Origin: an uncultured Verrucomicrobiae bacterium
GTDB lineage: Bacteria; Verrucomicrobiota; Verrucomicrobiia; Palsa-1439
Direction of reading: 5' to 3'
Length of the DNA: 64,000 nucleotides
Assembly (NCBI GenBank): GCA_963817685.1
Contig: CAWFPN010000022.1
Span: 40,197-104,196 of the forward strand
Within the stretch, counting starts at the first letter, position 1. Every line of letters starts with the position of its first letter. The notes under the pieces are model-generated. The model searched no databases. It was not told where the DNA came from and saw nothing but the letters and a program-made list of their open reading frames with translations. Positions 22,067-47,858 of the stretch are shown here, one piece after another. Both the position numbers and the translations under genes were made by a program.

Positions 22067-22450
22067 TTACCAGGGCGCGATGGTGTCGTCGGGGGCGAAG
22101 ACCTGGGGGAACATGCGTTTGAGTTGGGCGTTGTTGAACCGGTCGAAACCGAGGCAGCCTTCGTGGTCGAGGGCCTTGGCGTCGCAGGTGGTGGTGACGT
22201 GGTTGACGAGCTGGCGCGCGCCGTCCCAGGCGGTGATCAGCTTGAGAAATTCCTCGCGGGGAGTGTCCTGGGGCATTTTTTTGGCCAGCCAGGGGTAGAG
22301 ATTGCGCAATTGGTCCATTGTCCAGCGGTCGTAGCCGTGGCAAAAGACACCAAGGCGGGCGGCGGCCTGGCAGGTCGTCTCATCTTCGTGCGTGTTGGCC
22401 ACAAGATATTCGCGGATGCGTTGGAGCGCTTCAGTGCGGCTGTAGTTCAT
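22067..22450 (-). CDS. Hypothetical Cys/His-containing protein, last gene of the hyp-PFOR operon
   Basis: MNYSRTEAL..TTCQAAARLGVFCHGY..TTCD..HEGCLGFD; GAGG RBS; 5 bp from the upstream gene. Confidence 0.75.
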   Translation of the reverse strand: MNYSRTEALQRIREYLVANTHEDETTCQAAARLGVFCHGYDRWTMDQLRNLYPWLAKKMPQDTPREEFLKLITAWDGARQLVNHVTTTCDAKALDHEGCLGFDRFNNAQLKRMFPQVFAPDDTIAPW

Positions 22451-22455
22451 GGCGG

Positions 22456-23466
22456 TCACCTCGTTTCCTGGGAGGGTTTGTAACTGATGAGGGCGCGCAT
22501 GTATTGGGCGCGCTCGAACGCGGTGGGATTGGGGCAGAGATACTGGCACATGCTGCCCTGCATCTGGCGCACCGATTCGTATTCGTGTTCTTCCATCCAG
22601 CGAATGAGTTCCTGTTCCACCGTGCGCAGATGGGGGATGCCGCGTCGCAACAGGACCGAGCAGAGCATGGTGGCGCTGGCGCCGACCATGAGCATTTTCA
22701 CCACGTCTTCCCCGGTGTGAATGCCGCTGGTCGCCGCGAGATCGGCCTTGATCCGGCCGCAGAGAATGGCGATCCAGCGCAGCGGAATGCGGATTGCCTG
22801 CGGCGTGCTGAGCAGGACCTGGGGTCTGATCTCCAGGTTTTCCAGATCGATGTCGGGTTGATAGAACCGGTTGCAGAGCACCAGGCCGTCGGCGCCCGCG
22901 TTGTCGAGGCGCATGGCCATGTTGGCCAGGTTGCTGAAGAACGGGCTGAGTTTCATGGCGACCGGGATGGAGACGGCCGCCTTGACGGCCTGGAGGATGT
23001 CGATGTAGCGCTGCTCGACTTCCGCGCCGGTGAGGTTCATGTCCGTCGGGATGAAATAGACGTTCAGCTCCAGCGCGTCGGCTCCGGCCTGCTGCATCTG
23101 TTTGGCGAAATCGATCCAGCCGCCGGGCGACGAGCCGTTGAGACTGGCCACCACGGGGATGCCGACGGCGGCTTTCGCCTTGCGGATATGCTCGAGGTAC
23201 TCCTCCGGTCCCAGCGTAAACTCGCGCGGCTCGGGAAAGTAGGAAAGCGATTCCGGGAAACTGTCCGTGCCGGCGGTGAGATGGTGGTCCAACTCGTAGC
23301 GTTCGAGGCTCAACTGTTCTTCGAACAACGAGTACAGCACCACCGCGCCGGCGCCCGCGTCTTCCATCGCCCGGATCTTGTCGAGTTCGTCGGACAACGG
23401 CTGGCAGGCCGAGACCACCAGGGGCGTCTTGAGTTTCAAACCCATGTATTCAGTTTTCAGGTCCAT
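22456..23466 (-). CDS. Dihydroorotate dehydrogenase-like FMN protein (PFOR-associated)
   Basis: DLKTEYMGLKLKTP, GAVVLYSLFEEQ, ASLNG, KLSPFF, NRFYQPDID. Confidence 0.9.
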   Translation of the reverse strand: MDLKTEYMGLKLKTPLVVSACQPLSDELDKIRAMEDAGAGAVVLYSLFEEQLSLERYELDHHLTAGTDSFPESLSYFPEPREFTLGPEEYLEHIRKAKAAVGIPVVASLNGSSPGGWIDFAKQMQQAGADALELNVYFIPTDMNLTGAEVEQRYIDILQAVKAAVSIPVAMKLSPFFSNLANMAMRLDNAGADGLVLCNRFYQPDIDLENLEIRPQVLLSTPQAIRIPLRWIAILCGRIKADLAATSGIHTGEDVVKMLMVGASATMLCSVLLRRGIPHLRTVEQELIRWMEEHEYESVRQMQGSMCQYLCPNPTAFERAQYMRALISYKPSQETR

Positions 23467-23486
23467 AATTGGTGTCTCCTTGCTGC

Positions 23487-27082
<3,596 letters not shown>

Positions 27083-28093
27083 CTAACAAATCCGCGGCAG
27101 GTCTTCCCCCGTGGGCACGTCGATGATGCGTTCACCGCCGATGGTCGTGCGCAACAGGGCCATGCCCTTCGGTCCGGCCAATACCTGGCCGATGATGCGC
27201 GCGTTGGTCCCCAGCGGATGAGTTTTCATGGCGGCCAGGACCGTTTCAGCGTCCTCCGCCCGGCAGAACGCGATGCACTTGCCTTCGTTGGCAATCGTCA
27301 AGGGGTCGAGCCCCAGCAAATCACACGCCCCGCGCACTTCGCGGCCCACCGGCAGGGCGATTTCGTCGAGACGGATCCCGGCGCCGGCGGCTTCGGCGAT
27401 GTCGCAGACAGCGCCCGCCAGGCCGCCCCGGGTCAAATCACGCATGGCATGGATCTCGGCGCCCGTGTCCAGAATGGTTTTCACCAGCGGCCACAACGGC
27501 GCGCAATCGCTGACCACGCTGCACGAAAACGCGATGCCTTCGCGCCGGCTCATCACGGCCACGCCGTGTTCCCCGAGAAATCCGTTCAGCAGCACCGCAT
27601 CGCCAGGTCTCACCGCGGCCGCGCCCCACCGGTCCGGCGCCAGGATGCGGCCGATGCCGGCGGTGTTGATGTACAGTCCTTCGCACTTGCCGCGTTCGAC
27701 GACTTTGGTGTCGCCGGTGACGATCTCCACACCCGCCGCGCGGGCGGCCTGGCCGATGGAAGCGACGATGGTTTTCAGGTCCTCCAGCGGCAGGCCTTCT
27801 TCGAGGATGAACCCCAGGCTCAACCAGCACGGTTGCGCGCCTTGCATGGCCAGGTCGTTGATCGTGCCGCAGACGGCCAGTTTGCCGATGTCGCCGCCGG
27901 GGAAGAAATAGGGGTGCACCACGTAGCTGTCGGTGGTGAACGCGCAGTTGTTACCGTTGATCGCCAGCACCGCGCTGTCCTCGAGCGGTTTCAACTCGGG
28001 ATTGTCCAGCGCGGGCAGGAACAGCGAGGTGATCAGCTCGCGGGTCAGCGAACCGCCGCCGCCGTGGGCCAGCAAAATGCGGTCGCGCCTCAT
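27083..28093 (-). CDS. hypE: Hydrogenase maturation protein HypE
   Basis: LAHGGGG, TTDSYVV, GDTKVVE, C-terminal LPRIC. Confidence 0.97.
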   Translation of the reverse strand: MRRDRILLAHGGGGSLTRELITSLFLPALDNPELKPLEDSAVLAINGNNCAFTTDSYVVHPYFFPGGDIGKLAVCGTINDLAMQGAQPCWLSLGFILEEGLPLEDLKTIVASIGQAARAAGVEIVTGDTKVVERGKCEGLYINTAGIGRILAPDRWGAAAVRPGDAVLLNGFLGEHGVAVMSRREGIAFSCSVVSDCAPLWPLVKTILDTGAEIHAMRDLTRGGLAGAVCDIAEAAGAGIRLDEIALPVGREVRGACDLLGLDPLTIANEGKCIAFCRAEDAETVLAAMKTHPLGTNARIIGQVLAGPKGMALLRTTIGGERIIDVPTGEDLPRIC

Positions 28094-29157
28094 GCCGCGG
28101 CCCTCTTTTCATATTTGTACCAGGCGGCGCAGACGCCTTCGCTGGACACCATGCACGGCCCGACCGGATGGGCCGGTGAACAGGCGCGTCCGAACAAGCG
28201 GCATTCCAGCGGCGTCAACACCCCTCGCAACACATCGCCGCACCGGCACCCGGCGGGGACATGCGCTTCACTGAACGGCACACCCAGTCTCCGCGCGGCG
28301 TCGAAGCGCGCGTATTTCGGGCGAATGCTCAGCCCGCTTTGCGCGATGGCGCCCATGCCGCGCCAGCTCGTGTCGCACGGCTCGAACACATCGCGCAACA
28401 GCCGTTGCGCGGCGGGATTGCCCTGTTCGGTGACGGACCGGCTGTATTCCACCTCCACCACGGCGCGGCCATCCAGCCGCTGCTGGAGCAATAGCGAAAT
28501 CGCCTTCAGGATGTCCCAGGCCTCAAACCCGGTGACCACACAGGGAATCTGATAGCGCTCGCAGATGAACCGGTACATCGCCGCGCCCGTGATCACGCTG
28601 ACATGGCCGGGACAGATGAATCCATCGATCCGGGTGGTCTGGTCCTTGAGCAACGCCTCCATCGCCTGCGGCATCGTCTTGTGCGCGCAGAGCACTGAGA
28701 AATTATTGAGGCCGTCCCGCGCCGCGCTGACGATGCTCCAGGCCACGGCCGGCGCGGTGGTTTCGAAGCCGATCCCGAGAAAAACGACCGTCTTGCCGGG
28801 GCATTCCCGCGCCAGCACCAGCGCATCGGTGGGCGAGTACACGATGCGCACATTGGCGCCCGCCGCCCGTTCCTGTTCCAGCGAGGATTCGCTGCCCGGC
28901 ACCCGCAACAGGTCGCCGAACGTGGCGACGATCACGTCCGGCCGGCGGCAGAGCCCGATCGCCGCGTCGATGTAGTTGGTGTCGGTGACGCAGACGGGAC
29001 AACCGGGGCCGGAGATCAATTTCACGTTGGCCGGCAGCAACTGGCGCAGCCCCGTGCGAAAGGCCACCATCGTGTGCGTGCCGCAGACTTCCATGAACCG
29101 TACTTCGCGATGGAGGCGGCCCGCCAGTTCGTCGATGGTTTGGACAAGGGTCTTCAT
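28090..29157 (-). CDS. hypD: Hydrogenase maturation protein HypD
   Basis: MEVCGTHT, GPGCPVCVT, GFETTAP, PGHVS, GPCMVSSEGVC. Confidence 0.97.
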   Translation of the reverse strand: MKTLVQTIDELAGRLHREVRFMEVCGTHTMVAFRTGLRQLLPANVKLISGPGCPVCVTDTNYIDAAIGLCRRPDVIVATFGDLLRVPGSESSLEQERAAGANVRIVYSPTDALVLARECPGKTVVFLGIGFETTAPAVAWSIVSAARDGLNNFSVLCAHKTMPQAMEALLKDQTTRIDGFICPGHVSVITGAAMYRFICERYQIPCVVTGFEAWDILKAISLLLQQRLDGRAVVEVEYSRSVTEQGNPAAQRLLRDVFEPCDTSWRGMGAIAQSGLSIRPKYARFDAARRLGVPFSEAHVPAGCRCGDVLRGVLTPLECRLFGRACSPAHPVGPCMVSSEGVCAAWYKYEKRAAA

Positions 29158-29381
29158 GCCAGCGCCTCGCGCAGGTCTGTTGCCGCCCGGATTGCTTCCA
29201 GTTCGTCGACTTCGCTCTGGTCCCATTTGTGGATGGCGAACCCGGCGTGCACCAGCACGTGGTCGCCCAGACGCGGCTCGTCAACGAGCGACACGTCCAC
29301 GTCGCGCAACGCGCCGTCGACGGAGATCGTCGCCTTCGTCCCGTTCAGCTCCACGATCTTTGCTGGCACGGCTAGGCACAT
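29154..29381 (-). CDS. hypC: Hydrogenase chaperone HypC
   Basis: MCLAVPAKIV...VLVHAGFAI. Confidence 0.95.
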   Translation of the reverse strand: MCLAVPAKIVELNGTKATISVDGALRDVDVSLVDEPRLGDHVLVHAGFAIHKWDQSEVDELEAIRAATDLREALA

Positions 29382-31672
29382 GCTTCGACCTCGTTGGTTG
29401 AGCAACCGGTTTTCTCCCGATTGAGTCTGGCCGCCGCCACCGCTGCCTGGCCCAGGGCCAGCCCGCCGTCGTTGGGCGGGACGAGATTGTTGGTGTAGAC
29501 GGTGAAATAGTGCGTCTGTAACGCCTCGATCGTGCGGCGCAACAGCAGGGCGTTCTGGAACACGCCGCCCGATAACGCCACGGAATTCAGGTCGTGCCGG
29601 CCGCGCAACAGGCGGCAGGTTTGCACCACCGCCGCCACGATGGTGTTGTGAAATCTCGCGGAAATGACACTCAGGCCGATGCCTTGTTCGCGCTCCTCGA
29701 TCAGGGCGCGGACCGTCAGGCCGAAATCCAGCGTCCACGGCGCCGCCTGCGTTTTGACCTCGAACGGATACCGCCCGGTCTCGCGGGGATCGGCGATGGA
29801 TTCCAGCCGGATGGCGGGCTGGGCTTCGTAGGTGGCCGTGCGGCACAGGCCGAGCAGGACGGCGACGGCGTCGAACAATCGTCCTGCGCCCGAGGTGAGC
29901 GGCGCGTTGAATTGGGCCGTGATCATTTTCTGGATTTCGCCGAGGGCTTCCGGGGCGAACTGTTCTTCGGTGGACAGGTCGATCCCTTCTGTTAACAGGA
30001 TGCCGGCGGCCATGCGCCAGGGCTGCGCGACCGCCTGGTCGCCGCCGGGTTGCGGATAGGCCTTGAAATGCGCCGCGCGCTTGAACCCGAGGCGGTCGGC
30101 GATGAGGAATTCGCCGCCCCAGATCGTGCCGTCGCCGCCGTACCCCGTGCCGTCCAGCGCGACGCCGATGAGCGGCTCGTGCAAATCGTGTTCGGCCATC
30201 ACGCTGGCGATGTGGGCGTGATGGTGTTGGACGCCGATCTTGCGCGGGATGGAAAGTTTTTGGGCGAATTTGGTTGAGAGATACGCGGGATGCAGGTCGC
30301 AGGCCACGGCTTCGGGTCCGATCCGCATCAGGGCTTCCCAGGTGGCGATTTCGCGCGTGAAGAAATCATACGTCTTGAAACTCCTCAGATCGCCGATGTG
30401 CTGGGAGAGAAACGCGCTGCCGTCGCGCACGAGGCAGAACGTGTTTTTCAATTCGCCGCCCACGGCCAGGATCGGCGGTGAATGCGCGGCGATGCGGACG
30501 GGATGAGGCGCGAACCCGCGCGCCCGGCGCATGAATTGGCGCTGGCCGTTGACCACGCGCAGGACGGAGTCATCACACTTGTGCGCGATGGGACGATTGT
30601 GGGTGAGGGCCGCATCGGCGACGCCGCCGAGAATGGCCGGCAATTCCTGTTCGTCGCTGATGATTGGTTCGTCGGCGAAATTGCCGCTGGTCATCACCAG
30701 CGCGTCGAACCCCTGCAGCAACAGGTGATGCAGGGGAGTGTACGGCAGGAAAGCGCCCACGGCGCCGGTGTCGGGCGAGAGCGATGCCGCCAGTTCGGTC
30801 CGTTCGCTCACGAATGCGCGCTGGAGCAACACGATGGGCCGCGCGGCGGACTGCAATTCGGCTTCCTCGACTTCATTGGCTTTGCAAAAGTTTTTCAACG
30901 CCGCCAGATTGCGAAACATCACCGCCAGCGGTTTGTGGGGGCGATGTTTGCGCCGGCGCAGCAGCGCGACGGCCGCGTCGTTGGTCGCGTCGCAGGCGAG
31001 TTGATAACCGCCCAGGCCCTTGATCGCCACGATCTTGCCCCGGTGCAGCAGGTCCTGCGCTTTGACGATCGGGTCGGCCACCGCGAGGACCCCAGCCGGC
31101 GTGCGCAGTTCCACGCGCGGGCCGCAGTCGGGGCAGGCGTTGGGTTGCGCGTGAAACCGGCGGTCGCCGGGATCGCGGTATTCGCGGTCGCACGGCTCGC
31201 AGAGGGTGAATTCGGCCATCGAGGTCTTGTCGCGGTCGTAGGGCAGGGCGCGGACGATGGTGAACCGCGGGCCGCAGTTGGTGCAGTTGATAAAGGGATA
31301 ACCGAACCGATGGTCACGCGGATCGGCCAGCTCGCGCAGACAATCGTCGCAGGTCGCCAGGTCAGGGGAAATCAGCGTGGCCGCCTCGCCGTCGTTTTCC
31401 GAGCCGACGACGTCGAACTGCTGGCAGCCCGTTGCTTCCAGCACCTCGGTCTGGATGTCGACGATGATCGCGTGCCGGGGCGGTTCGTTGGTGAGATGAT
31501 TGAAAAACGCCCCGATCTTCAACTCGTCGCCCTCGACTTCGAGCGTGACGCCCTGGGGGTCGTTGCGGACGAACCCGCCCAGCCCGAACGCCGTGGCGTA
31601 CCGATAGACGGTCGGACGAAAGCCGACGCCCTGCACGCGGCCGGTGATCCTGGCTCTCCAGCGGGTTTTCAT
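29372..31672 (-). CDS. hypF: Carbamoyltransferase HypF
   Basis: GRVQGVGFRP, CDDC, CTNCGPR, RRFHAQPNACPDCGP, QHHHAH, PPNDGGLALGQ. Confidence 0.97.
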   Translation of the reverse strand: MKTRWRARITGRVQGVGFRPTVYRYATAFGLGGFVRNDPQGVTLEVEGDELKIGAFFNHLTNEPPRHAIIVDIQTEVLEATGCQQFDVVGSENDGEAATLISPDLATCDDCLRELADPRDHRFGYPFINCTNCGPRFTIVRALPYDRDKTSMAEFTLCEPCDREYRDPGDRRFHAQPNACPDCGPRVELRTPAGVLAVADPIVKAQDLLHRGKIVAIKGLGGYQLACDATNDAAVALLRRRKHRPHKPLAVMFRNLAALKNFCKANEVEEAELQSAARPIVLLQRAFVSERTELAASLSPDTGAVGAFLPYTPLHHLLLQGFDALVMTSGNFADEPIISDEQELPAILGGVADAALTHNRPIAHKCDDSVLRVVNGQRQFMRRARGFAPHPVRIAAHSPPILAVGGELKNTFCLVRDGSAFLSQHIGDLRSFKTYDFFTREIATWEALMRIGPEAVACDLHPAYLSTKFAQKLSIPRKIGVQHHHAHIASVMAEHDLHEPLIGVALDGTGYGGDGTIWGGEFLIADRLGFKRAAHFKAYPQPGGDQAVAQPWRMAAGILLTEGIDLSTEEQFAPEALGEIQKMITAQFNAPLTSGAGRLFDAVAVLLGLCRTATYEAQPAIRLESIADPRETGRYPFEVKTQAAPWTLDFGLTVRALIEEREQGIGLSVISARFHNTIVAAVVQTCRLLRGRHDLNSVALSGGVFQNALLLRRTIEALQTHYFTVYTNNLVPPNDGGLALGQAAVAAARLNREKTGCSTNEVEACA

Positions 31673-32421: not shown

Positions 32422-32441
32422 ACAACCTCGCCCCTAGACTT

Positions 32442-32580: not shown

Positions 32581-32637
32581 ATCGGCCTGTTCGGCGGGTT
32601 ATGACGACGTTTTCGCCTCACTTGAGGCGGGGGGAGA

Positions 32638-34050: not shown

Positions 34051-34084
34051 GATGCGACCCACCTTGGGGATTCCCCCCGTTCCG

Positions 34085-36916: not shown

Positions 36917-38736
36917 GTAAAAATGGTCTCCAGAATGGCCGCGTCCTCGCGCGCCTGGCCGTGCGGGGGCAGGGCCGCGCGCAACGGCAGGACCCGTCCT
37001 TCGAAGTTCGTGGTGGAACCGTTTTTCTCCGACCAGACCGTCGATGGCAGCACCACCCGGGCAACGTCTGTCAGGGCCGATTGGTAGGCGGCCTGCACGA
37101 CGACGCAATCGATCTGCTCCAGCATCGCGCGCACGTGCCGTTCTTTCAGGATCTGCGCACCGCCGGCAGACTCGTCACCGGCGACGATCTGCAGGAAATT
37201 CAGCGGCTGCACGCCCAGCCACGTCGAGATGTCCTCGACGGCTTCGATCCCGGCGGCCGCCAGGGCGAGACTGTTGGTGCCCGTGGGCAACTGGATCGGC
37301 GCCAGCATCGCGCCTCCGTTGCCGCCGGCGGCGAGCGTCTCGATGAGCCGGTCGAGAATTGTGATCCCGACCGGCGTCATCGCGGTCGGCCCATAGATCA
37401 ATACGGGCCGCTTCGTCTGGGACAGCACCTCACCCAGGTGGTTCCAGAATTTTCGTTCCAGGCTGACGACTGGCGCGGAAATATCGGCGTAGGTGTCGAG
37501 GTCGCCCCGGCGCGATTCGAGGACCACGAGCTTGGCGCCGCGTTTGCGCACCGCCGTGCGGATCTTCGCCGCCACCACCCCGTGCGTGCGGCTTGGATCG
37601 GCGCCGATCAGGATGATCGCGTCGGCGTCCTCCAGCCGCCGCAAACTGTCGGGCGAAAACTCCGGTGTGCCGCACAACGCCGCCTCCTTGTCCGCCACGA
37701 ACATGCCGATGCGGTCGAAGTGGACGCCGATTGTCTGCAGCGTGCCGATCGTCTGATTCGTCACCCGCGGTGAAATCAACAGCGCTGTTTCCCAATCAAT
37801 CGCCTCGCGGATCGCCTGGCGCACGACGCCCAGCGCTTCGTCCCAGGTGGCCGGTTTCAGTTTGCCGCCCTGGCGCACCAGCGGCCCCAAAATGCGCCGG
37901 CGCGGTTCGGCCCAGGTGCCGTAACGGCCTTTGACGCAAAGATGGCCGCGATTCACGTCCGACGCGGGGTCGCCAAACACGTCGACGACGCGGTTGTCTT
38001 TCGTGTACACGACCAGTCCGCACCCGACCGGGCACTCGATGCACGTGGTCCGGGTCTGCTGGCATTTGGCGAGCGGGCCGTGAAACGCCGCCGCCTTGTC
38101 GAACAACGCCCCGGTCGGACAGGCCGCGACGCACGCGCCGCAGAGCGTGCAGGAGGTGGACGCGCCGAAGGTGCTGTTCAAATCGATGATGATCTGGTTC
38201 TTCACGCCGCGGTAACCGATGTCGAGGGTGTGGACGCCTTCGATCTCGTCGCAGGTGCGGACGCAGCGCGTGCAGAGAATGCAGCGGTTGTGGTCCAGCC
38301 CGAAATACTTGCCCGAGACGTCCTGCGGCAGCACCGGGTAGAGATAGGGATACCGGATCGCGTCGATGCCGGCCTTGTAGCCCTGTTGTTGCAGGTCGCA
38401 ATCGCCCTTGTTCATCGGGCAGATCGGGCAGAAATGGTTGCGTTCGCTGAAGAGCAACTCCAGCGTCAGCCGGCGCAACTGTTGCAGGCGCGGGCTGTTG
38501 GTGGTGATCGTGTTGCCGTCCACGGCGGGTGTCGCGCACGAAGGAACGACCTTGGGACTGCCCTTGATTTCCACGATGCACATGCGGCAGCCGCCCCATG
38601 GCGTGAGGTGTTTCATGTAGCACAGCGTGGGGATTTCGATGCCGTTGGCTTGGGCGATTTGCAAAATGGTCTGGCCCTGCGCGCCCTTGCACGGTTTGTC
38701 ATCAATCGTCAGGGTGATTTCCTTGGGAGCGATCAT
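36913..38736 (-). CDS. HoxU-like FeS subunit fused to a cofactor-less FdhF/NuoG-like domain (HydA of HydABCSL type), 607 aa
   Basis: PTLC..GGCRMC..PSC [2Fe-2S]; NHFCPIC..DC; CILCTRCVRTC; CTLCGACVAACP; CIECPVGC..LCVKGR; degenerate molybdopterin-oxidoreductase-like C-terminus (VVLPSTVWSEKNGSTTNFEGR); no H-cluster motifs. Confidence 0.85.
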   Translation of the reverse strand: MIAPKEITLTIDDKPCKGAQGQTILQIAQANGIEIPTLCYMKHLTPWGGCRMCIVEIKGSPKVVPSCATPAVDGNTITTNSPRLQQLRRLTLELLFSERNHFCPICPMNKGDCDLQQQGYKAGIDAIRYPYLYPVLPQDVSGKYFGLDHNRCILCTRCVRTCDEIEGVHTLDIGYRGVKNQIIIDLNSTFGASTSCTLCGACVAACPTGALFDKAAAFHGPLAKCQQTRTTCIECPVGCGLVVYTKDNRVVDVFGDPASDVNRGHLCVKGRYGTWAEPRRRILGPLVRQGGKLKPATWDEALGVVRQAIREAIDWETALLISPRVTNQTIGTLQTIGVHFDRIGMFVADKEAALCGTPEFSPDSLRRLEDADAIILIGADPSRTHGVVAAKIRTAVRKRGAKLVVLESRRGDLDTYADISAPVVSLERKFWNHLGEVLSQTKRPVLIYGPTAMTPVGITILDRLIETLAAGGNGGAMLAPIQLPTGTNSLALAAAGIEAVEDISTWLGVQPLNFLQIVAGDESAGGAQILKERHVRAMLEQIDCVVVQAAYQSALTDVARVVLPSTVWSEKNGSTTNFEGRVLPLRAALPPHGQAREDAAILETIFT

Positions 38737-40586
38737 GCCGGCACCCCTCCTGCCATGGGTTCTTCCTGCGGTTCCTGTGTGTGCACCCGGCCGGGCGACG
38801 TCTTCTTGACCGCGCCGAACAGGCAGGCGTCGAAGCAGGCCCCGCACTGGATGCATTTCGAGGGATCCAGGTGGAATTTCTTCTGGCCTTCGACCTTGTG
38901 AATGGTCTGCGCCGCGCAGGCGCGCGCACACAGCGAACAACCTTTGCAAAGCGGCTGGTCGATCTCAAAATGCAGCAGGGACCGGCAGACGCGCGCGGGG
39001 CAACGCCGGTCGAGAATGTGCGCCTCGTACTCGTCGCGGAAATAGCGCAACGTGGTCAGCACCGGATTCGGCGCCGTCTGGCCAAGCCCGCACAGGCTGG
39101 TGTCCTTGACCATCGCCGCGAGATCTTCGAGCTTCCGAATGTCATCCATCTCGCCCTGGCCCGAGCAGATGCGGTCAAGGATGTTCAACATCTGGCGGGT
39201 CCCGACGCGGCAGGGAGGGCATTTGCCGCACGATTCATCGCAGCAGAATTCCATGAAGAACCGCGCCACGTCCACCATGCACGAATCCTCGTCCATCACC
39301 ACCAGGCCGCCCGACCCCATGATCGAGCCCAGCTGTTGCAGCGTCTCGTACTCGATCGGCGTATCGAGGTGCTGTTCGGGGATCACGCCGCCCGATGGGC
39401 CGCCGGTCTGCACCGCCTTGAATTTCTTGCCGTTGGGAATGCCGCCGCCGACGCTGAAAATCATCTCGCGCAACGTGGTGCCGTAGGGCATCTCCGCCAC
39501 GCCGGTGTTGTTGATCTTGCCGGCCAGGCAGAAGACCTTTGTCCCCTTGGTCCGTTCCGTGCCAATGGCGGCGAACCACTTCGCGCCTTTGAGGATGATC
39601 GGCCGGATCGTGGCCCAGGTCTCCACATTATTGATATTGGTCGGCTTGCCCCACAGCCCGCGTTGGGCCGGGAAGGGCGGACGCGGTTGCGGCTGGCCGC
39701 GGCGGCCTTCGACGCTGCGCATCAGCGCCGTTTCTTCGCCACAGACGAATGCGCCCGCGCCGATGCGGACCTCCACGTCGAAATCAAATCCGCTCTCGAA
39801 CAAATTTTTGCCGAGCAACCCGTACTTGTAGGCCTGTTCGATGGCGATGTGCAGGCGTTTAACGGCCAGGCCGTACTCGGCCCGGATATAAATGAACCCG
39901 CGGCTGGCCCCCATCGCGCGCGCGCCGATGGCCATGCCCTCGAGCACGCTGTGCGGGTCGCCTTCGAGCACCGAACGGTTCATAAACGCGCCGGGATCGC
40001 CCTCGTCGGCGTTGCAGACGACGTATTTGGGAAATTCGGGCGCCTGGCGCATGATCTCCCACTTCTTGCCCGTCGGGAACCCCGCGCCGCCGCGGCCACG
40101 CAAGCCGCTGGCCTTGATCTCTGCGATGATCTGCTCGGGTGTCATCGACGTCAGCACCTTGCCCAGCGCGGTGTACCCGTCCCGCGCGATGTACTCCTCG
40201 ATGTTCTCGGGATTGATAATGCCGCAGTTGTCGCGCACGATGCGCATCTGGCGGTTGAAAAAGGTGAAATCGGCCTGTGTCAGCACCGCGTTCTGCGTCT
40301 GCGGGTCCAGCGGCAGCAGTTTCGCGTACGGCCGGCCCTTCAGGAAATGCTCCTCCACCAGCTTCGGCACCTCGGCAGCCAGCACGTTCCTGTAAAACGT
40401 GCCGTCGGGATGCACCAACGATACCGGACCGAGGTCGCACCGGCCCATGCAGCCGGTCTCGACGATTTCGATTTCGTCTTCGAGCCCGCGCTTCTTCAAT
40501 TCCGCCCGCAACGCGTCACGCGTGGCGAGACTGCCGCAGCTGGTGCAGCCCGTGCCCGTGCAAACCAGGAAATGCGTGCGAATCAT
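38733..40586 (-). CDS. NADH/FMN-binding subunit, HydB/HndC/NuoF-type with C-terminal 2x[4Fe-4S]
   Basis: N-terminal CTGTGC..CMGRC; GLRGRGGAGFPTG; NADEGDPGAFM; GGPSGG; ESCGKCPPCR; HILDRRCPARVC; CKGCSLCARAC; CIQCGACFDAC. Confidence 0.93.
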   Translation of the reverse strand: MIRTHFLVCTGTGCTSCGSLATRDALRAELKKRGLEDEIEIVETGCMGRCDLGPVSLVHPDGTFYRNVLAAEVPKLVEEHFLKGRPYAKLLPLDPQTQNAVLTQADFTFFNRQMRIVRDNCGIINPENIEEYIARDGYTALGKVLTSMTPEQIIAEIKASGLRGRGGAGFPTGKKWEIMRQAPEFPKYVVCNADEGDPGAFMNRSVLEGDPHSVLEGMAIGARAMGASRGFIYIRAEYGLAVKRLHIAIEQAYKYGLLGKNLFESGFDFDVEVRIGAGAFVCGEETALMRSVEGRRGQPQPRPPFPAQRGLWGKPTNINNVETWATIRPIILKGAKWFAAIGTERTKGTKVFCLAGKINNTGVAEMPYGTTLREMIFSVGGGIPNGKKFKAVQTGGPSGGVIPEQHLDTPIEYETLQQLGSIMGSGGLVVMDEDSCMVDVARFFMEFCCDESCGKCPPCRVGTRQMLNILDRICSGQGEMDDIRKLEDLAAMVKDTSLCGLGQTAPNPVLTTLRYFRDEYEAHILDRRCPARVCRSLLHFEIDQPLCKGCSLCARACAAQTIHKVEGQKKFHLDPSKCIQCGACFDACLFGAVKKTSPGRVHTQEPQEEPMAGGVPA

Positions 40587-40964
40587 TTATTTCTGCTCCG
40601 GTTCCTTGATCTTGCCGACGGCCAGGCCGTCGACGACCTTGCCCTTTTCCAGGTGCTCCGAGACGATCTGGCGCGCGGCGGCGGCATTGACCTTCGCGTA
40701 GGTGACCTTTTCCCCCGACGCGTCCTCCACCCGGATCACCGGCTCGGCATCGACCAGCCCGATCTCGCCCGTGACGGCGACTTCCACGTTCTCGATGCCG
40801 CGTTTGTCGAGTTCATCGAGCATGGAGGTCATCACGTCCCGCGCTCCGGCGGCGATGCCGCTGGTGCCCATGCTGAACACCACGCGGTACTTCTTGTTGC
40901 CTTCACGCAGCGCGACGTGACGTTGCGCCTTTTCTTTGAGTTTTTTGAGTTCGTCGAGGTTCAT
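40587..40964 (-). CDS. Thioredoxin-like ferredoxin homolog (HydD/HndB-like) lacking all cysteines
   Basis: MGTSGIAAGARDV..TGEIGLVDAEP..VTYAKV..IVSEHL matches the family pattern MxTCGIAAGA..TGCIGxC..EP, with Cys replaced. Confidence 0.8.
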   Translation of the reverse strand: MNLDELKKLKEKAQRHVALREGNKKYRVVFSMGTSGIAAGARDVMTSMLDELDKRGIENVEVAVTGEIGLVDAEPVIRVEDASGEKVTYAKVNAAAARQIVSEHLEKGKVVDGLAVGKIKEPEQK

Positions 40965-41424
40965 CGTGTCTCCCTTCCTGTGAGCTGAAATGAAACGTCT
41001 GGCCGTTGGAACGGTAGTGCAGTTGCACGTCCACATCCTGGCGGGCGCACAACGTGAGAATGGTGGCATTGAGGTCGCCCAGCGGCGGCCGGTCGATGTG
41101 CGAATAGCGCATCGAGGCCGTCACCGACGTGCCCCGGCCCGGCGCGGAGCGGACGTGGAACGTTCCGCCGCACATTTCGGAAGTCTGCCGCAAAAACGCC
41201 AGCCCCAGGCCGATGGCTTTCAATCGGCTTTTCTTGCTGGTCCGATTAAAGTTGAGCACCTCGCGCAATGTCCGGGCGTCCATGCCCTTGCCGTCGTCGC
41301 GGATGCGGATGATCAGCCAGTCGCGCCGGATGTCTTCGATCACCACGACCTGCAGCGTCTTCGCCCCGGCGGCCAGTGAATTCATGCCGATGTCCAGGAT
41401 GTGCAGCGAGAGTTCTTCAAGCAT
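40903..41424 (-). CDS. Stand-alone histidine-kinase-like ATPase (HATPase_c); 3' end uncertain
   Basis: ELSLHILDIGMNS, IRDDGKGMD, IGLGL, SHIDRPPLGD, as in hyd/hnd operon accessory genes. Confidence 0.85.
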   Translation of the reverse strand: MLEELSLHILDIGMNSLAAGAKTLQVVVIEDIRRDWLIIRIRDDGKGMDARTLREVLNFNRTSKKSRLKAIGLGLAFLRQTSEMCGGTFHVRSAPGRGTSVTASMRYSHIDRPPLGDLNATILTLCARQDVDVQLHYRSNGQTFHFSSQEGRHDEPRRTQKTQRKGATSRRAA

Positions 41425-41995
41425 ACTTCTTCAACTCCTTCTGGCAAAAACGCGGGATCTTGTCGGGCGTGAGCTTGCCGTACACGTCGTCGCCGACGGT
41501 GATGGCCGGCGCCAGCGCGCAGGCGCCGATGCAGCGGGCCGTTTGCAGGCTGAACAACCCGTCCTTGGTCGTTTCGCCGTGGGCGATGCCGAGTTGCTGG
41601 CCGAGCCGTTCGACGACCGTGGCGGCCCCGCGCACGTGGCAGGTCGTGCCCGTGCAGACCATGATCTGGTATTTGCCGCGCGGCACGACAGAGAAGAAAT
41701 TGTAGAATGTAGTTACTCCATAGACGTGGGCCAGCGGCAGCTTCATGGCCGTGGCGACGTAACGCAGCACGTCGGGCGCTAGATAACCGAACGTGTGCTG
41801 CGCGGCGTGCAACACCTGGATCAGCGCCGTCGGTTCGTAGTTGTAATGCTGCAGCGTCTGGTCGAGCGACGCGAAGCGTTGGTCGCCGCTCGGATGGTGC
41901 GGCAGCATCGGCGCGGTGGACGGGTTCGCGGTGAGCGTGCCCGGCTGCGGCGTGATCGATGCCGTGGCGCTGGCGGGTGTCGTGGTCTCACTCAT
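41417..41995 (-). CDS. [2Fe-2S] subunit HydC/HndA/HoxE/NuoE-type
   Basis: LIQVLHAAQ..FGYL, VYGVTTFY, CTGTTCHVRG, RCIGACALAP. Confidence 0.92.
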   Translation of the reverse strand: MSETTTPASATASITPQPGTLTANPSTAPMLPHHPSGDQRFASLDQTLQHYNYEPTALIQVLHAAQHTFGYLAPDVLRYVATAMKLPLAHVYGVTTFYNFFSVVPRGKYQIMVCTGTTCHVRGAATVVERLGQQLGIAHGETTKDGLFSLQTARCIGACALAPAITVGDDVYGKLTPDKIPRFCQKELKKYA

Positions 41996-42353
41996 GGTCG
42001 TTCTCCCCTCGCAGTCCGGCCTCCCAGAGTTTGCCCGCCGCTTCGTAAGTGGTCAGCGGTGTGGTCAGCAGCGCGATTCCTTCCTGCTCCGCCTCCGCGA
42101 CGATCTCCGCCTCCGGTTTTCGTCCGCAGGTGAAGAGCACCGCCGTGATGTCCTTCGTGGCCGCGACGGAGACGACGTTGCGGTGCGTCTGGATGGTGAC
42201 CCAGAGCATGCCCGGCCCCGCGTGCGCCAGCACGTCGCTGAGCAGGTCCGAGATGTAGCAGCCCGTCAGCAACTCCGGCACGGCATCGGTCAGCGGTTCG
42301 GCCTGCAGCATCGCGATCAGCGTCCTGGACTTGACCGGCAATTGTATTTTCAT
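41988..42353 (-). CDS. DRTGG-domain protein
   Basis: GCYISDLLSDVLA, LWVTIQTHRNVVSVA, TTYEAAGKL. Confidence 0.85.
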   Translation of the reverse strand: MKIQLPVKSRTLIAMLQAEPLTDAVPELLTGCYISDLLSDVLAHAGPGMLWVTIQTHRNVVSVAATKDITAVLFTCGRKPEAEIVAEAEQEGIALLTTPLTTYEAAGKLWEAGLRGENDHE

Positions 42354-43275
42354 GAGGGTGCTCCCGCTTGGCGCAGGTAAATTTCCGAGCGCAACCGCGT
42401 TCCGCGTTTGCCGTCCGAGGTAATGGTCAGCTTGTCCGAGCAGCGCTTGATGTTGGGCAATCCCATGCCCGCGCCGAAGCCGAGTTCACGCGGCAGGCGG
42501 CCCGCGGTGGACCAGCCTTCCTGCATGGCCTGGTCGATGTTCTCGATGCCCGGCCCGGTGTCGATCGCCTCGATCACCACCTTGTCGGGACCGATGGTGG
42601 CGATGATCTCGCCGCCGAGCGAATGGATGATGATGTTCGTCTCCGCTTCGTAGGCGACGACGGCGGCCCGGCGGCGGATTTCCGGGTCGATGCCGCGGTC
42701 GCGCAGACCTGGCGCATGCGCTGCGAGACTTTGCCCGCGCTGTCGTAATCGCCCGTGCGCACGTGCGCGCGGACGACCACGCGTTGGGCGGCTTCGTCAT
42801 CGGCCCGGGAGGCGCGCAGCACGGCTTCGTGGGCCAGCGCTTCCTCGGCGCGCCGTTCGAGGTGATGCATCAGGCAGCCGGTGATGTCGCCGCGGGTAAT
42901 GACGCCGACCAGCCGGTCGTTGCCGTCGAGCACGGGAAAACGGCCGAACTCATGCCGGTCGAATTCCGCCACGGCGCGCACCAGCGAAAAATGGTCGCGG
43001 AGCGCGACACGACGTTGCGGGCCATGCGTTGTTCGGCGGGCTCATCGATATAGCCCTTGTCAAGCGCGCGGATGATGTCTTCGATGCTGACGATGCCGAG
43101 CAAGTGTTTCGCCGTCGATCATGGGCACCCCGGAGAACGCGGCGCGCTTTCATCAGCATGCTGGATCGTGCGCAGCGAATCGGACGGAGCTGGCGGTGAT
43201 CGGCGGACTTGCTCATGGCGTCGCGCACGCGCAATTCATAGACGAGGATCTGGGCGACCGAGATTTTTCGCGCAT
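42350..43275 (-). CDS. CBS-domain plus RsbT/RsbW-like Ser/Thr kinase (several frameshifts)
   Basis: Fragments: LRVRDAM, GIVSIEDII, GRFPVLD..LVGVITRGDI; DTGPGIENIDQAMQEGWST..GFGAGMGLPNIKRCSD. Confidence 0.8.
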
Positions 43276-43295
43276 CGCCCGCGCCGGCGGATTGC

Positions 43296-45541
43296 TCAGA
43301 TGGCGGGCGCGGTGGTGCATCGCGGGTCTCCTAGGGTCGGCGGCGCCTCCGCGGCGAGCGCCATGCGGACGTCGGCCACGTGTGCGCCTTTGCCCTGCGC
43401 ATGGACGATGAGCGGGTTGATGTCCAGTTCGGCGATCTCGGGAAAATCGATGACGAGTTGCGAAAGACGCTCCAGACAATCGGCAATGGCATCGATATCG
43501 GCCGGCGGCTGACCGCGGAACCTCTCGAACACTTTGGCCGCGCGGATCGAGTTGATCATGTTGCGGGCGCCGAGTTCGCGGATCGGCGCCAGGCGGAAAC
43601 TGACGTCCTTGAGCACTTCGACGTACGTGCCGCCCATGCCGAACATGATGATGTGGCCGAAGGCGGGGTCCTTGCTGATGCCCGAGGATCACCTCGACGC
43701 CGCGTGCCGGCCATGGCTTCGACTTCCACGCCGAGGAGCCGCGCACTGGGTAGTTTTTGTTTCACCCCGTTTGTGATTTTTTCATAACCCAGCACGGGCT
43801 TCCTCGGCGTGGAAATATTCAGCAGCACGCCGCCGACATCGACCTTGTGGACGACGTCGGGCGAAGCAATTTTCATGGCGACGGGTCCGCCGATCTTTTC
43901 GAACAACGCGGCGGCCTCGTCTTCGCTCTTGGCCAAAGCGTGTTGGAGCACGCGGGAAACCATAGGCCTTCAACACGGCCAGCGCTTCGGCTTCGGGCAG
44001 GAACGTGCGGCCTTCGCCGCGGACCTTGGCGAAAATCTCGCGCACGGCGTTCTTGATCGACCTCGAAATGGCGCTCCTGGGTGCGCGGGCGCGTGCAGCC
44101 ATTGCGTGTAGCGGCACATGGCGCCCGAGCGAGCGGGACGCGTTCTCGGGAAACTCGTAGTTGGGGACGCCGTATTGCTCGAGGATGCGAACGCCGGCGG
44201 ACACGTCCACGTGGCCGAGGAACGAGGCGAGCACCGGTTTCTTGCTGGGCGGCGCAATCTCGCCGATCGTGCCGCGCGATGGCCTCGATTTCGGTCATGG
44301 ACTGCGGCGTGAGCAGAACCACCAGCCCGTCGACGTTCGGGTCGCCGAGCACGGCTTCGAGAGCGGCCGTCGTAGCGATCGCAGCGTGGCGTCGCCGATG
44401 ACGTCGACGGGATTAGAAAAGTTCGCGGTCGGAGGCAGCTTCGCCTTGAGGGACTCGAGTGTCTCGGGTCGCAGTTTGGCGAGCTCGAGTCCATAACGGA
44501 TGGCGGCATCGGTGGCCATGATGCCGGGTCCACCCGCGTTGGTGACGATGGCGAAGCGGTTGCCTTTGGGCAACGGCTGGCGTGAGAACCCGACCGCGAA
44601 GTCGAAGAGTTCTTCCACAGTGTCAACGCGCAGGATGCCGGCCTGCGCGAAAATGGCGTCGTAGACGGCGTCGCTGCCGGCCAGCGCGCCGGTGTGGGAA
44701 CGGGCGGCGGCGGCGCCTTGCTGGGTCCGGCCGGATTTGATGGCCAGGATCGGTTTGCGATGGGCGAGTTCGCCCGGTGATCTCGCGAGCCAGATCAATG
44801 AAGGCCCGGCCGTCGGCCAGCGTTTCCAGGTACATCAAGATCACGTCGGTGCGTCGTCGGTCGGCCAGATAACGCAGCAAGTCCATGTTCGGTCGACGTC
44901 GGCCTTGTTGCCGACGCTGATGAATTTCGAAAAACCGATGTCGCGGCCCCGGGCGTAGTCCAGGATGCCCGCGCAGAGCGCGCCGCTTTGGGACACGAAA
45001 GCGATGTTGCCGTGTTTGGGCATGCGCGCGGGCGAAACTGGCGTTGAGCATGATGTCGGCGATCGGTGTTGATCACGCCCAGGCAGTTCGGGCCGACCAG
45101 CGGCATGTGATAACGCTGGCCAATGGCGATGATGCGTTGTTCCAGTGCGGCGCCTTCCGGGCCGATTTCCTTGAATCCCGCGGTCACGATCACCGCTCCG
45201 CGCACGCCTTTCTGGCCGCATTCCTCCAGCACTTCCGGCACAACGTTGGCGGGGACGATGATCAGGGCCAGGTCGATTTCCTGCGGGATGGCGGAGATGC
45301 TGGTGTAGGAGTGCACGCCGCAAATGGACGGGGCCTTCGGATTGACGGGATAGAGTGTGCCGCAGTAACCGCCCATCAGGATGTTCTTGAAAATGGCGTT
45401 GCCGACGCTGCCTTCGCGGTTCGAGGCGCCGATGACGGCGATGGATTTCGGCGAGAAGATTGGCGCGAGCCGATCCAACTCAGCGGCAGGCGCGGCTGCT
45501 TGCTTAGATGTCTTTTCCACTGGTATTGCGCATGTAGTCAT
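43296..45541 (-). CDS. Acetate-CoA ligase (ADP-forming), fused alpha/beta (many frameshifts)
   Basis: PKSIAVIGAS, YPVNP, GPNCLG, SQSGAL, ARSHTGALAGSD, TNAGGPG, NPVDV, KIASPDVVHKVDVGGV, FGMGG, ELDINPL across frames. Confidence 0.88.
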
Positions 45542-46276: not shown

Positions 46277-46311
46277 CACGCTTTCCCAGCGGAGCATCGC
46301 GAGTACCAAAT

Positions 46312-47853: not shown

Positions 47854-47858
47854 CCGCC

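Follow-up and report, generated by a model that had tools for sequence, protein, structure and literature searches.

A verrucomicrobial gene cluster that probably links pyruvate fermentation to acetate and ATP with H2 formation by a confurcating-type NiFe hydrogenase

In the hydrogenosome of Trichomonas, malic enzyme, pyruvate:ferredoxin oxidoreductase (PFOR), an FeFe hydrogenase, NuoE/F and ASCT with succinyl-CoA synthetase (SCS) together give rise to acetate, CO2, H2 and ATP by substrate-level phosphorylation. Bacteria with FeFe-HydABC enzymes (Thermotoga, Thermoanaerobacter and Acetobacterium; PDB 7Q4V, 7P5H and 8A6T) make H2 from NADH and reduced ferredoxin during the fermentation of sugar to acetate. 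The five-subunit NiFe-HydABCSL enzyme of Acetomicrobium mobile (A. mobile; 7T2R and 7T30; Feng et al. 2022, PMC8880783) is described as reversibly coupling H2 with NAD and ferredoxin, whereas the cyanobacterial HoxEFUYH enzyme, a group 3 NiFe hydrogenase, is reported to need NADH and PFOR-reduced ferredoxin together in order to produce H2 (bioRxiv 10.64898/2026.06.25.734504). The metabolic logic that we propose below has already been published for bacteria, in these accounts of A. mobile and of cyanobacterial Hox with PFOR. Within the Verrucomicrobiota, cultured Limisphaera convert sugars to acetate, ethanol, H2 and CO2, as well as to lactate in one of two strains, and Por, Acd and group 3/4 NiFe hydrogenases are listed for them (PMC13608581).

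The window analysed here, a 64,000-nt stretch of DNA from an uncultured Verrucomicrobium of peat or soil, contains on its minus strand (22067–46327) a cluster whose parts are all known enzymes. A first block runs from a GNAT gene through an ADP-forming ligase (ACD), small regulators, a five-subunit NiFe hydrogenase, a protease and hypA to malic enzyme; the rest of the cluster comprises hypBFCDE, a single-chain PFOR, a dihydroorotate-dehydrogenase-like (DHOD-like) gene and a small ORF. In the order of transcription the features are:

45716–46327, minus strand: GNAT acetyltransferase gene (PF00583 and further GNAT families), separated from the downstream ACD gene by 174 nt
43296–45541, minus strand: ADP-forming acyl-CoA (putatively acetate-CoA) ligase, ACD, of the fused alpha-beta type; Pfam pieces in several frames
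42350–43234, minus strand: regulator gene with CBS pair and HATPase_c (SpoIIAB-like), the two matches in different frames
41988–42353, minus strand: DRTGG-domain protein (PF07085)
41417–41995, minus strand: HydC, NuoE/HoxE-like [2Fe-2S] subunit (PF01257, 172.9 bits; HoxE and NuoE models)
40903–41424, minus strand: small histidine-kinase-like ATPase (PF02518)
40587–40883, minus strand: small [2Fe-2S] ferredoxin-like protein (weak NF041612 match; start inferred at 40883, 40880 or 40871)
38733–40586, minus strand: HydB, NuoF-like FMN/NADH subunit (domains and PDB matches)
36913–38736, minus strand: HydA, NuoG-like Fe-S subunit (start inferred at 38736, with an ATGA overlap)
36374–36916, minus strand: HydS, small subunit (PF01058 positions 1–90 in one frame and 76–128 in the next)
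34932–36377, minus strand: HydL, group 3 NiFe large subunit (588 bits to 7T2R_D)
34452–34931, minus strand: hydrogenase maturation endopeptidase (TIGR00072, 72.4 bits; cut-off 47.45)
34085–34459, minus strand: HypA (PF01155)
about 32638–34062, minus strand: malic enzyme (PF00390 and PF03949)
31669–32421, minus strand: HypB, opening the second block, 216 nt from the malic enzyme gene (TIGR00073, 240.9 bits)
29372–31672, minus strand: HypF (six HypF domains)
29154–29381, minus strand: HypC (PF01455, 78.5 bits)
28090–29157, minus strand: HypD (PF01924, 500 bits)
27083–28093, minus strand: HypE (AIRS and AIRS_C)
23487–27067, minus strand: single-chain PFOR of the NifJ type (POR_N, PFOR_II, POR, EKR, Fer4 and TPP_enzyme_C)
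22456–23466, minus strand: DHOD-like flavoprotein (NF005741, 498.8 bits; cut-off 303)
about 22067–22459, minus strand: conserved Cys-containing ORF of 130 residues, no family

An earlier note, made from the sequence alone, had described two co-oriented operons with ATGA-type couplings at 22067–45541. Each of the genes that it named is present at its stated place on the minus strand, but the GNAT gene belongs upstream, beyond that range. The description as two tight, co-oriented blocks is a fair one, since the gap between the malic enzyme gene and hypB is the only internal gap of more than 80 nt and since, when we chose as the start of each gene the start codon closest to the upstream stop, 4-nt overlaps were found at eight junctions (seven ATGA and one GTGA) and 8-nt overlaps at three. 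Promoter-like and terminator-like sites were no more frequent than in shuffled sequence, and we therefore based the operon structure on spacing, which suggests that the genes of the cluster are co-transcribed.

The hydrogenase genes (34932–41995) specify the same five subunits as those of A. mobile NiFe-HydABCSL, which among solved structures is the top match of HydL and HydA and close to the top for HydB. In particular, HydB carries additional N-terminal [2Fe-2S] (2Fe-2S_thioredx) and C-terminal 2x[4Fe-4S] (Fer4) domains, an architecture that it shares with A. mobile HydB, as it does the AFM, Phe and GGPSG motifs seen in the alignment, which section 10 of PMC8880783 gives as distinct for bifurcating enzymes. 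HydB is equally similar to its counterpart in the FeFe-HydABC enzymes (878 bits to 7Q4V_B and 859 bits to 7T2R_B); unlike in those enzymes, however, the catalytic subunit here is of the NiFe type (HydSL) and not an H-cluster HydA. Indeed, HydA (347 bits to 7T2R_A, with the C-terminal third unaligned in the best stretch) has a molybdopterin-type domain and is without an H-cluster domain. HydL retains both Cys pairs; a motif of 10 residues (letters not shown) and DPCLSCSTH are readable in its translation. The A. mobile matches, the HydB domains and the three HydB motifs support the earlier note's proposal of a confurcating hydrogenase, and we predict an enzyme of the confurcating/bifurcating type, closest to A. 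mobile NiFe-HydABCSL. The two cases differ in that the present organism belongs to the Verrucomicrobiota and not the Synergistota, and is represented by a mesophilic peat or soil MAG, and in that the hydrogenase genes are embedded here between ACD and hyp-PFOR. Cyanobacterial Hox differs more, having a short HoxU in place of the long HydA and a HoxF without the layout of the cluster's HydB. PFOR and a DHOD-like gene do adjoin the hox genes in L071, L092, L100 and L101 (records labelled Elainella, Pseudanabaena, Leptolyngbyaceae and Rhizobium sp.), but in these loci PFOR and hox are divergently oriented, and ACD is not adjacent.

HydL is the sole PF00374 match in the genome (88% complete), and a search of it for FeFe hydrogenase domains returned none. 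With no second hydrogenase found, the hyp genes would serve the hydrogenase of the cluster; the set is complete, as had been claimed, with HypA to HypF and the TIGR00072 protease all present, and HypE is 76% identical to its orthologue in the related locus L024. The CBS-ATPase, DRTGG, kinase-like and ferredoxin-like genes are probably regulators, by analogy with other Hyd operons. The A. mobile operon likewise has small kinase-like and HydD-like genes, hisK and hydD, neither of which belongs to the enzyme itself (legend to Fig. 1 of PMC9304861), and the small ATPase and the ferredoxin-like protein of the cluster are the probable equivalents of hisK and HydD, respectively. The DRTGG-domain gene adjoins the HydC gene in relatives too, and the ferredoxin-like gene is retained in them.

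The assignment of PFOR to the single-chain type is borne out by TIGR02176 (1393.8 bits; cut-off 911), but the gene is not one open frame in the assembly. In the ACD gene, the CoA_binding_2, Succ_CoA_lig, Ligase_CoA_2 and ATP-grasp_5 domains are spread over several frames, in whose translations SHTG and HKVD can be read. The two catalytic histidines of an intact orthologue (L024:846–3053) align with phospho-histidines H256 and H535 of PDB 8WZU, so that both phospho-His motifs reported earlier are present. The fused five-subdomain layout with both phospho-histidines is that of the ACD superfamily (Ca. Korarchaeum ACD1, 4XYL; Nitrosopumilus, 8WZU and 9Y43), although the nearest solved relatives use hydroxy-acids. 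The best of these is a 4-hydroxybutyrate-CoA ligase (8WZU, 658 bits), and acetate is therefore a putative acyl substrate, suggested by the PFOR neighbour and by one NCBIfam model, the acetate-CoA ligase alpha model TIGR02717 (586 bits for the orthologue; cut-off 567). The genome contains, in addition, four acetate-kinase-family matches, so ACD is not the sole possible route to acetate.

The order ACD, regulators, HydCBASL, protease, hypA, hypBFCDE, PFOR and DHOD-like gene, with a variable slot after hypA, is collinear in L024 and in G055, G043, G040, G047 and G052, the last five being among the 10 family genomes that we examined for gene order. In those 10 related verrucomicrobial genomes the hydrogenase is flanked by ACD in six and by both ACD and PFOR in five. 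In G009 (97% complete), no HydL match was found at E<=1e-100, and the order GNAT-ACD-PFOR-DHOD-like-x160 is directly adjacent, suggesting that ACD and PFOR form a linked core, with the hyd/hyp block lying between the two where it is present. The synteny looked for between malic enzyme, PFOR, ACD and hydrogenase is thus conserved for the last three; malic enzyme lies within the cluster in only 2 of the 10 genomes and on other contigs in four close relatives, and its slot in relatives holds adenylate kinase or is empty. The malic enzyme of the cluster, the sole PF00390 match in the genome, has an ACT-like N-terminal extension of ~100 residues (ACT_4 scored under its cut-off), and among solved structures it is closest to the small NAD malic enzymes 2A9F and 5CEE. 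Possibly it is a housekeeping gene that lies here by chance, which weakens the proposed entry of malate. Glycolysis yields the same 1:1 ratio of NADH to ferredoxin without malate.

Taken together, the cluster probably encodes one module for fermentative electron disposal and ATP gain. PFOR would convert pyruvate to acetyl-CoA, CO2 and reduced ferredoxin, and the ligase would convert acetyl-CoA to acetate with formation of ATP; the cytoplasmic NiFe hydrogenase (HydABCSL, Bfu type), matured by the cluster's own hyp genes and protease, would then co-oxidise reduced ferredoxin and NADH (confurcation) to form H2. The NADH could come from glycolysis and possibly also from malic enzyme, if NADH is its product, in which case malate could enter. 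The earlier note's arithmetic, by which NADH and ferredoxin arise 1:1, is correct chemistry. Its likening of the cluster to a hydrogenosome holds as an analogy: malic enzyme, PFOR, NuoE/NuoF-like modules and a hydrogenase occur together in both and follow similar logic, but the hydrogenase here is of the NiFe type, non-homologous to the FeFe enzyme, ATP would come from ACD and not from ASCT and succinyl-CoA synthetase, the setting is bacterial cytoplasm without an organelle, and the link to malic enzyme is not conserved among relatives.

Since all of the enzymes are reversible, the sequence does not fix the direction of flux, and the fermentative direction is the one that we infer. PFOR, ACD and malic enzyme can in principle run backwards, and in H2-rich peat the cluster might instead serve H2-driven assimilation of acetate and CO2, with electrons from H2 bifurcated to NAD+ and ferredoxin, ACD activating acetate, PFOR converting acetyl-CoA to pyruvate and malic enzyme pyruvate to malate (both carboxylations). 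Such a role would accord with the nearest solved relatives of the ligase, 8WZU and 9Y43, which form CoA esters as part of a carbon-fixation cycle, and with the reversible A. mobile enzyme, which reduces ferredoxin and NAD with H2 (PMC8880783). We consider it unlikely, however, because no other gene of the cluster suggests carbon fixation and the placement of malic enzyme is not conserved. Where ACD has been studied, moreover, it serves ATP gain. Cultured relatives in the phylum make H2 and acetate fermentatively (PMC13608581). It is also quite unlikely that the genes lie together as a result of their history or regulation and form no single pathway, with the GNAT and ACD-like proteins acting not as an ATP-forming ligase but as a regulator or as a Pat-type protein acetyltransferase in two pieces, and with malic enzyme being a housekeeping enzyme. 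The GNAT gene precedes ACD in the window and in seven relatives (L021, L022, L023, L024, G055, G040 and G052), the Pat protein acetyltransferases 9IT0 and 9ISQ align along the entire ACD orthologue at ~350 bits, and malic enzyme is a single-copy gene found elsewhere in the four close relatives. Against this, the orthologue retains both catalytic histidines, scores 658 bits against true ligases and 352 against Pat, and exceeds the cut-off of the acetate-CoA ligase alpha model, and the association of ACD with PFOR in G009 and with the hydrogenase in other genomes goes beyond chance neighbourhood.

A fermentative module presupposes intact genes, and four genes of the cluster carry 25 frameshifting indels relative to every orthologue examined: 15 in ACD (13 of +1, one of +2 and one of -1, mapped against four intact orthologues), seven in the CBS-ATPase gene (uninterrupted in L024, at 398 codons), one in HydS, a +1 insertion at position 36589 (mapped against L024, L026 and L029), and two in PFOR, also +1 insertions, at positions 26351 and 26309. 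Were these true pseudogenes in a decaying cluster, no H2 or acetate would be formed by this route. We find this highly unlikely, given that all but two of the 25 indels are insertions, that the frame-restored ACD has no stop in 716 codons, that its dN/dS against L024 (0.151) falls within the range of the intact orthologues among themselves (0.094–0.188), and that its private residue changes number 9, compared with 10–22 in the other five sequences. In addition, the unrelated cydB is split in like manner, and the long neighbours HydB, HydA, HydL and HypF are intact. Peat metagenome contigs lack the extra base at 26312, 26353, 43683, 44127 and 44776, although these contigs, ~90–93% identical over ACD, come from relatives and not from the source. 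A heuristic count of frame switches across the genome returned 17.2 candidates per 100 kb, compared with 9.6 in other MAG loci; this contrast is too slight to establish that the assembly is rich in errors overall. The breaks in ACD, the CBS-ATPase gene, HydS, PFOR and cydB thus most likely reflect assembly or sequencing errors, and we take the genes to be intact in the organism; the ligase does not resemble a true pseudogene, which the earlier note had named as grounds for abandoning its proposal.

At the low end of the cluster, the 130-residue ORF had no Pfam, NCBIfam or Atlas match. It follows the DHOD-like gene in L022 and in 5 of the 10 family genomes, and the DHOD-like gene itself comes after PFOR in all 12 loci with sequence downstream of PFOR.

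The supercluster on the minus strand of the window places a five-subunit NiFe hydrogenase (HydABCSL) between an ADP-forming acyl-CoA ligase (ACD) and a single-chain pyruvate:ferredoxin oxidoreductase (PFOR), in a host draft genome of 3.99 Mb (29 contigs, 88% complete). Similar-sequence contigs are present in metagenome runs from peat, bog and wetland, and the nearest named relatives of the hydrogenase are metagenome-assembled genomes (MAGs) labelled Verrucomicrobiia or Verrucomicrobiota.

Genes of the cluster, ordered from high to low coordinates
45716–46327, minus strand: GNAT acetyltransferase
43296–45541, minus strand: ACD (ADP-forming acyl-CoA ligase)
42350–43234, minus strand: CBS-pair/HATPase_c protein (CBS-ATPase)
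following the CBS-ATPase in this order, minus strand: DRTGG protein, HydC (NuoE-like), small kinase-like ATPase, small [2Fe-2S] protein
next in this order, minus strand: HydB (NuoF-like), HydA (NuoG-like), HydS, HydL, maturation protease, HypA
32638–34062, minus strand: malic enzyme, between HypA and HypB
following the malic enzyme in this order, minus strand: HypB, HypF, HypC, HypD, HypE
23487–27067, minus strand: PFOR, single-chain
directly after PFOR, minus strand: dihydroorotate-dehydrogenase-like flavoprotein (DHODl)
22067–22459, minus strand: 130-residue ORF without a family

The five hyd genes are all adjacent, at 34932–41995. With each gene begun, by our choice, at the start codon lying closest to the stop upstream of it, eight junctions overlap by 4 nt and three by 8 nt, and the remainder are 0–79 nt wide except for two, of 174 nt (GNAT/ACD) and 216 nt (malic enzyme/hypB). 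The depiction of this region in an earlier note as two co-oriented operons with ATGA-type couplings therefore agrees with the spacing, the 216-nt gap being internal, and the cluster is probably co-transcribed. Promoter-like and terminator-like sites within the cluster are as numerous as in shuffled sequence; the one promoter-like site (32551–32524) and one hairpin (32610–33633 region; stem 32610–32633) in the malic enzyme/hypB gap carry no evidential weight.

The best or near-best solved relative of HydL, HydB and HydA is the NiFe-HydABCSL of Acetomicrobium mobile (7T2R/7T30), at 588, 859 and 347 bits, respectively. HydB aligns with 7T2R_B from end to end and carries the extra domains, namely an N-terminal [2Fe-2S] domain (2Fe-2S_thioredx, residues 4–79) and a C-terminal 2x[4Fe-4S] domain (Fer4_7, 547–592). 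Features described as distinct for bifurcating hydrogenases in a passage of Feng et al. (PMC8880783) are the AFM motif, the Phe in loop 278–287 and the motif GGPSG; by residue-level alignment the window HydB has all three ('dpgafm', 'gagafvcgeetal' and 'tggpsgg') on the same residues as 7T2R_B. In HydL the two Cys pairs that are the standard NiFe ligand motifs are both retained (as [10 protein letters not shown] and DPCLSCSTH), followed by a 26-residue C-terminal tail, and a protease gene is adjacent. As far as can be judged from sequence, then, the hydrogenase shows every feature of the Bfu-type NiFe-HydABCSL that was examinable, and strict coupling of H2 to both NAD(H) and ferredoxin is predicted. 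The A. mobile operon is described in PMC9304861 as also containing "hisK" and "hydD", to which the small kinase-like and ferredoxin-like genes of the window are probably equivalent. An apparent internal TGA in the HydL of relatives was considered as a selenocysteine codon and rejected, being the ordinary gene-end stop in the two genomes of the family in which it could be mapped (G055 and G003); the first stop in a third (G040) falls at the same residue.

One NiFe large subunit, and no FeFe hydrogenase domain (PF02906), was found in the 88% complete genome, so that the cluster encodes the sole hydrogenase found in this peat/soil Verrucomicrobium, genomically wired to ferredoxin-making and ATP-harvesting enzymes. 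To our knowledge, one thermophile is the sole source of a characterised bifurcating NiFe hydrogenase. In PMC9304861, NiFe-HydABCSL enzymes were counted in 2022 as a 6-member clade.

Ligase, PFOR and malic enzyme are each typical of the family to which they belong. ACD is present in the window as pieces of its CoA-binding, CoA-ligase and ATP-grasp subdomains, which form one chain in an intact orthologue (L024:846–3053, from a relative's locus), which scores 586 bits against TIGR02717 (cut-off 567). The two catalytic His motifs, read as SHTG and HKVD in the window, align as SHTG with H256 and as HK(L/V)D with H535 of the solved Nitrosopumilus 4-hydroxybutyrate-CoA ligase (8WZU), whose histidines act in the swinging loop and the ATP-grasp domain (PMC11494057). 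The closest solved relative of ACD uses 4-hydroxybutyrate, and the PFOR neighbour points to acetate as the probable substrate here; four acetate-kinase-family genes are also present in the genome. The C-terminal 920 residues of PFOR score 1393.8 bits against TIGR02176 (equivalog cut-off 911), the N-terminal piece matches POR_N at 283.8 bits, and the pieces are parted solely by two +1 insertions, all PFOR domains otherwise lying in one polypeptide.

Disrupted frames are most severe in the ligase, which in the window is split into at least eight ORF pieces and in four relatives is intact, with open frames of 724–754 codons. Had these breaks marked a true pseudogene, the proposal of the earlier note would, on its own terms, have been undone. 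Nucleotide alignment to the four orthologues resolves 15 frameshifting events in ACD between 45062 and 43683 (thirteen +1, one +2 and one −1); the CBS-ATPase gene contains seven (five +1, one +2 and one −1), HydS one (+1 at 36589) and PFOR two (+1 at 26351 and 26309). Insertions account for 23 of the 25 events, and 22 of the 25 fall within 2.4 kb. Though it has no relation to the cluster, cydB is likewise split near 48.06 kb, with Pfam positions 1–71 in one frame and 70–302 in another. Genuine decay with 15 indels would be expected to leave nonsense and excess missense changes as well, and neither is seen. When the window ACD was aligned to the codon alignment of its orthologues and its private insertions were dropped, the restored frame contained no stops in 716 complete codon columns and had a dN/dS of 0.151 against the nearest orthologue, compared with 0.094–0.188 in ten orthologue–orthologue pairs. 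Furthermore, where the other five sequences all agree, it had nine private residue changes, the fewest of the six (the others had 10–22). Metagenome contigs of related populations from peat, bog and wetland lack one base at 26312, 26353, 43683, 44127 and 44776; over ACD these contigs, from four runs, are ~90–93% identical to the window and so represent relatives rather than the source strain. We therefore ascribe the breaks, with high confidence, to a stretch of the assembly with consensus errors of the insertion type, and the evidence points away from a pseudogene.

A genome-wide frame-switch heuristic returned 686 candidates (17.2 per 100 kb). Applied to 40 high-GC loci from other MAGs it still gave 9.6 per 100 kb, so its false-positive rate is too high for the error rate to be quantified. 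It grouped candidates into 39 clusters of at least three, the ACD/CBS stretch being the densest. Other such clusters lie at C28:6810–8772, C3:607635–608804, C15:3344–4577 and 35 further places, subject to the same false-positive rate; a second dense cluster (C28:6300–9300), tried as a control and set aside, belongs to a multi-copy family without a close orthologue against which to map indels. Should the heuristic clusters reflect true errors, the assembly's gene calls need care. The practical hazard is that what appears to be a heavily decayed pseudogene in a MAG can instead be insertion errors concentrated in one place, and a frame-restored test of stop codons and dN/dS separates decay from assembly error.

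Conservation of the arrangement was assessed at two scales, which may share loci, so that their counts are not independent. Among the best 80 HydL loci drawn from 185,579 species genomes, many of them cut by contig ends, ACD was present in two (L024 and L026), malic enzyme in three (L026, L027 and L029) and PFOR in six, co-oriented in L024 and on the other strand in L044, L071, L092, L100 and L101; every ACD- or malic-enzyme-bearing locus among these 80 has a Verrucomicrobial label. Within the family of the window, HydL is matched at E ≤ 1e-100 in 39 of 45 genomes, a count that includes the host genome of the window. Across ~27 kb around HydL in ten family genomes picked for long contigs, ACD lies upstream of the hydrogenase in six and the hyp genes followed by PFOR lie downstream in seven, both ACD and PFOR flanking it in five, which belong to a single genus. 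Two of the ten carry an in-cluster malic enzyme, and the full gene order of the window, malic enzyme included, recurs in one (G055). The synteny of malic enzyme, PFOR, ACD and hydrogenase that the earlier note proposed to look for thus holds for the flanking of the hydrogenase by ACD and PFOR but not for the malic enzyme. One family genome (G009, 97% complete) has no HydL match at E ≤ 1e-100 and carries GNAT, ACD, PFOR, DHODl and the small ORF directly adjacent; ACD and PFOR therefore constitute a linked core, with the hyd/hyp block between them where present.

The malic enzyme occupies a variable slot between hypA and hypB. Malic enzyme fills this slot in the window, in G055 and in L027; the slot is empty in two other family genomes (G043 and G047) and is taken by adenylate kinase in L024 (12304–13101) and L117 (13311–14108), the latter with an additional Rce1-like gene. 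With an ADP-dependent ligase in the cluster, adenylate kinase is a striking gene to find nearby. Four close relatives lack malic enzyme in the cluster and have a single orthologue (84–86% identical) on another contig; the window copy is the sole one found in its genome. In a tree of the enzymes, the in-cluster enzyme of G055 sits on a long branch, and key forks are weakly supported (62/40), so that the tree fits either one entry of malic enzyme into the slot or several. The window enzyme has both Malic N-terminal and NAD-binding domains (426.8 bits against 2A9F), and NAD-type and NADP-type malic enzymes both score highly against it; NADH, which the redox balance of the earlier note requires, is its predicted product.

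Taken together, the gene set has as its most likely route one in which PFOR would oxidise pyruvate, yielding acetyl-CoA, CO2 and reduced ferredoxin, ACD would use acetyl-CoA with ADP and phosphate to form acetate and ATP, and HydABCSL would oxidise NADH and reduced ferredoxin together to form H2, flux presumably running toward H2 and acetate. The 1:1 supply of NADH and ferredoxin that the earlier note had derived from malate would be given by glycolysis with PFOR; the route through malic enzyme and PFOR is a further possibility in this genome. The same logic of H2 formation from NADH and ferredoxin has already been shown for A. mobile and for fermenters with FeFe-HydABC. Defining parts of the hydrogenosomal pathway are an FeFe hydrogenase and the production of acetate through ASCT together with succinyl-CoA synthetase (SCS). 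The window instead has a NiFe enzyme, in an 88% complete genome where no PF02906 match was found, and ATP formation is assigned to ACD; the label "hydrogenosome-like" accordingly fails on its defining parts, and what is left is an analogy of overall chemistry. A 2026 preprint (bioRxiv 10.64898/2026.06.25.734504) shows this logic of joint NADH and ferredoxin use for Hox and PFOR of cyanobacteria as well. Within the Verrucomicrobiota, cultured Limisphaera is described in PMC13608581 as fermenting sugars, with acetate, ethanol, H2 and CO2 as products and lactate in addition in one strain, and Por, Acd and group 3/4 NiFe hydrogenases are listed there.

The advance is a modest one: an uncultured Verrucomicrobial family has a conserved supercluster with a rarely documented type of hydrogenase between the two enzymes it serves and a variable slot for malic enzyme or adenylate kinase. 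Our literature search found no description of it, the supplementary tables of Bfu clades in PMC9304861 may already include such genomes, and, by title and start of abstract, none of the nine papers found to name HydABCSL is about Verrucomicrobia. The arrangement offers a concrete route by which an abundant uncultured peatland group could feed H2 and acetate to methanogens, and a compact set of genes with which confurcating H2 production could be studied in a heterologous host. A more speculative reading, to which we give limited credence, is that the ~24-kb supercluster of this peat/soil Verrucomicrobiia family is a single energy-charge-sensing fermentation regulon, in which an ancestral ACD–PFOR pair was split when a confurcating NiFe hydrogenase was inserted along with the genes for its maturation, the CBS-ATPase, DRTGG and kinase-like sensors act as a gate, and the hypA–hypB slot recruits either malic enzyme, as a feeder of NADH from malate, or adenylate kinase, as a supply of ADP for the ligase. 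Were this regulon reading true, the abundant family would be a major overlooked producer of H2 and acetate for peat methanogens, and NiFe-HydABCSL would be a common soil enzyme.

Several neighbouring genes recur or are suggestive in their placement. DHODl (NF005741) follows PFOR in all 12 loci with downstream sequence, from a set comprising the window, L022, L044, L071, L092, L100, L101, G055, G043, G040, G047, G052 and G014; in four of the PFOR–DHODl loci, from records labelled Elainella, Pseudanabaena, Leptolyngbyaceae and Rhizobium sp., PFOR is divergent from hox-type genes. The literature search found no description of this pairing, and DHODl may be an undescribed partner of PFOR. In Verrucomicrobial loci the next gene is usually the 130-residue Cys-containing ORF, which has no family match and gave no usable match in an Atlas search. 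A stand-alone GNAT gene is kept just upstream of ACD in the window (45716–46327), L021–L024, G055, G040 and G052; the pairing recalls Pat, a fusion of an ACD-like with a GNAT domain, and the GNAT protein may acetylate or regulate the ligase. Divergent from the cluster and upstream of it are cydA and cydB (46399–48998, plus strand), encoding a cytochrome bd oxidase that may have a role in oxygen protection beside the genes for the oxygen-sensitive PFOR and hydrogenase. Just past cydB lies a gene for an ACT-domain protein (PF01842, ACT_ACR9_3rd; 49008–49988, minus strand), and the malic enzyme likewise has an ACT-like N-terminal extension.
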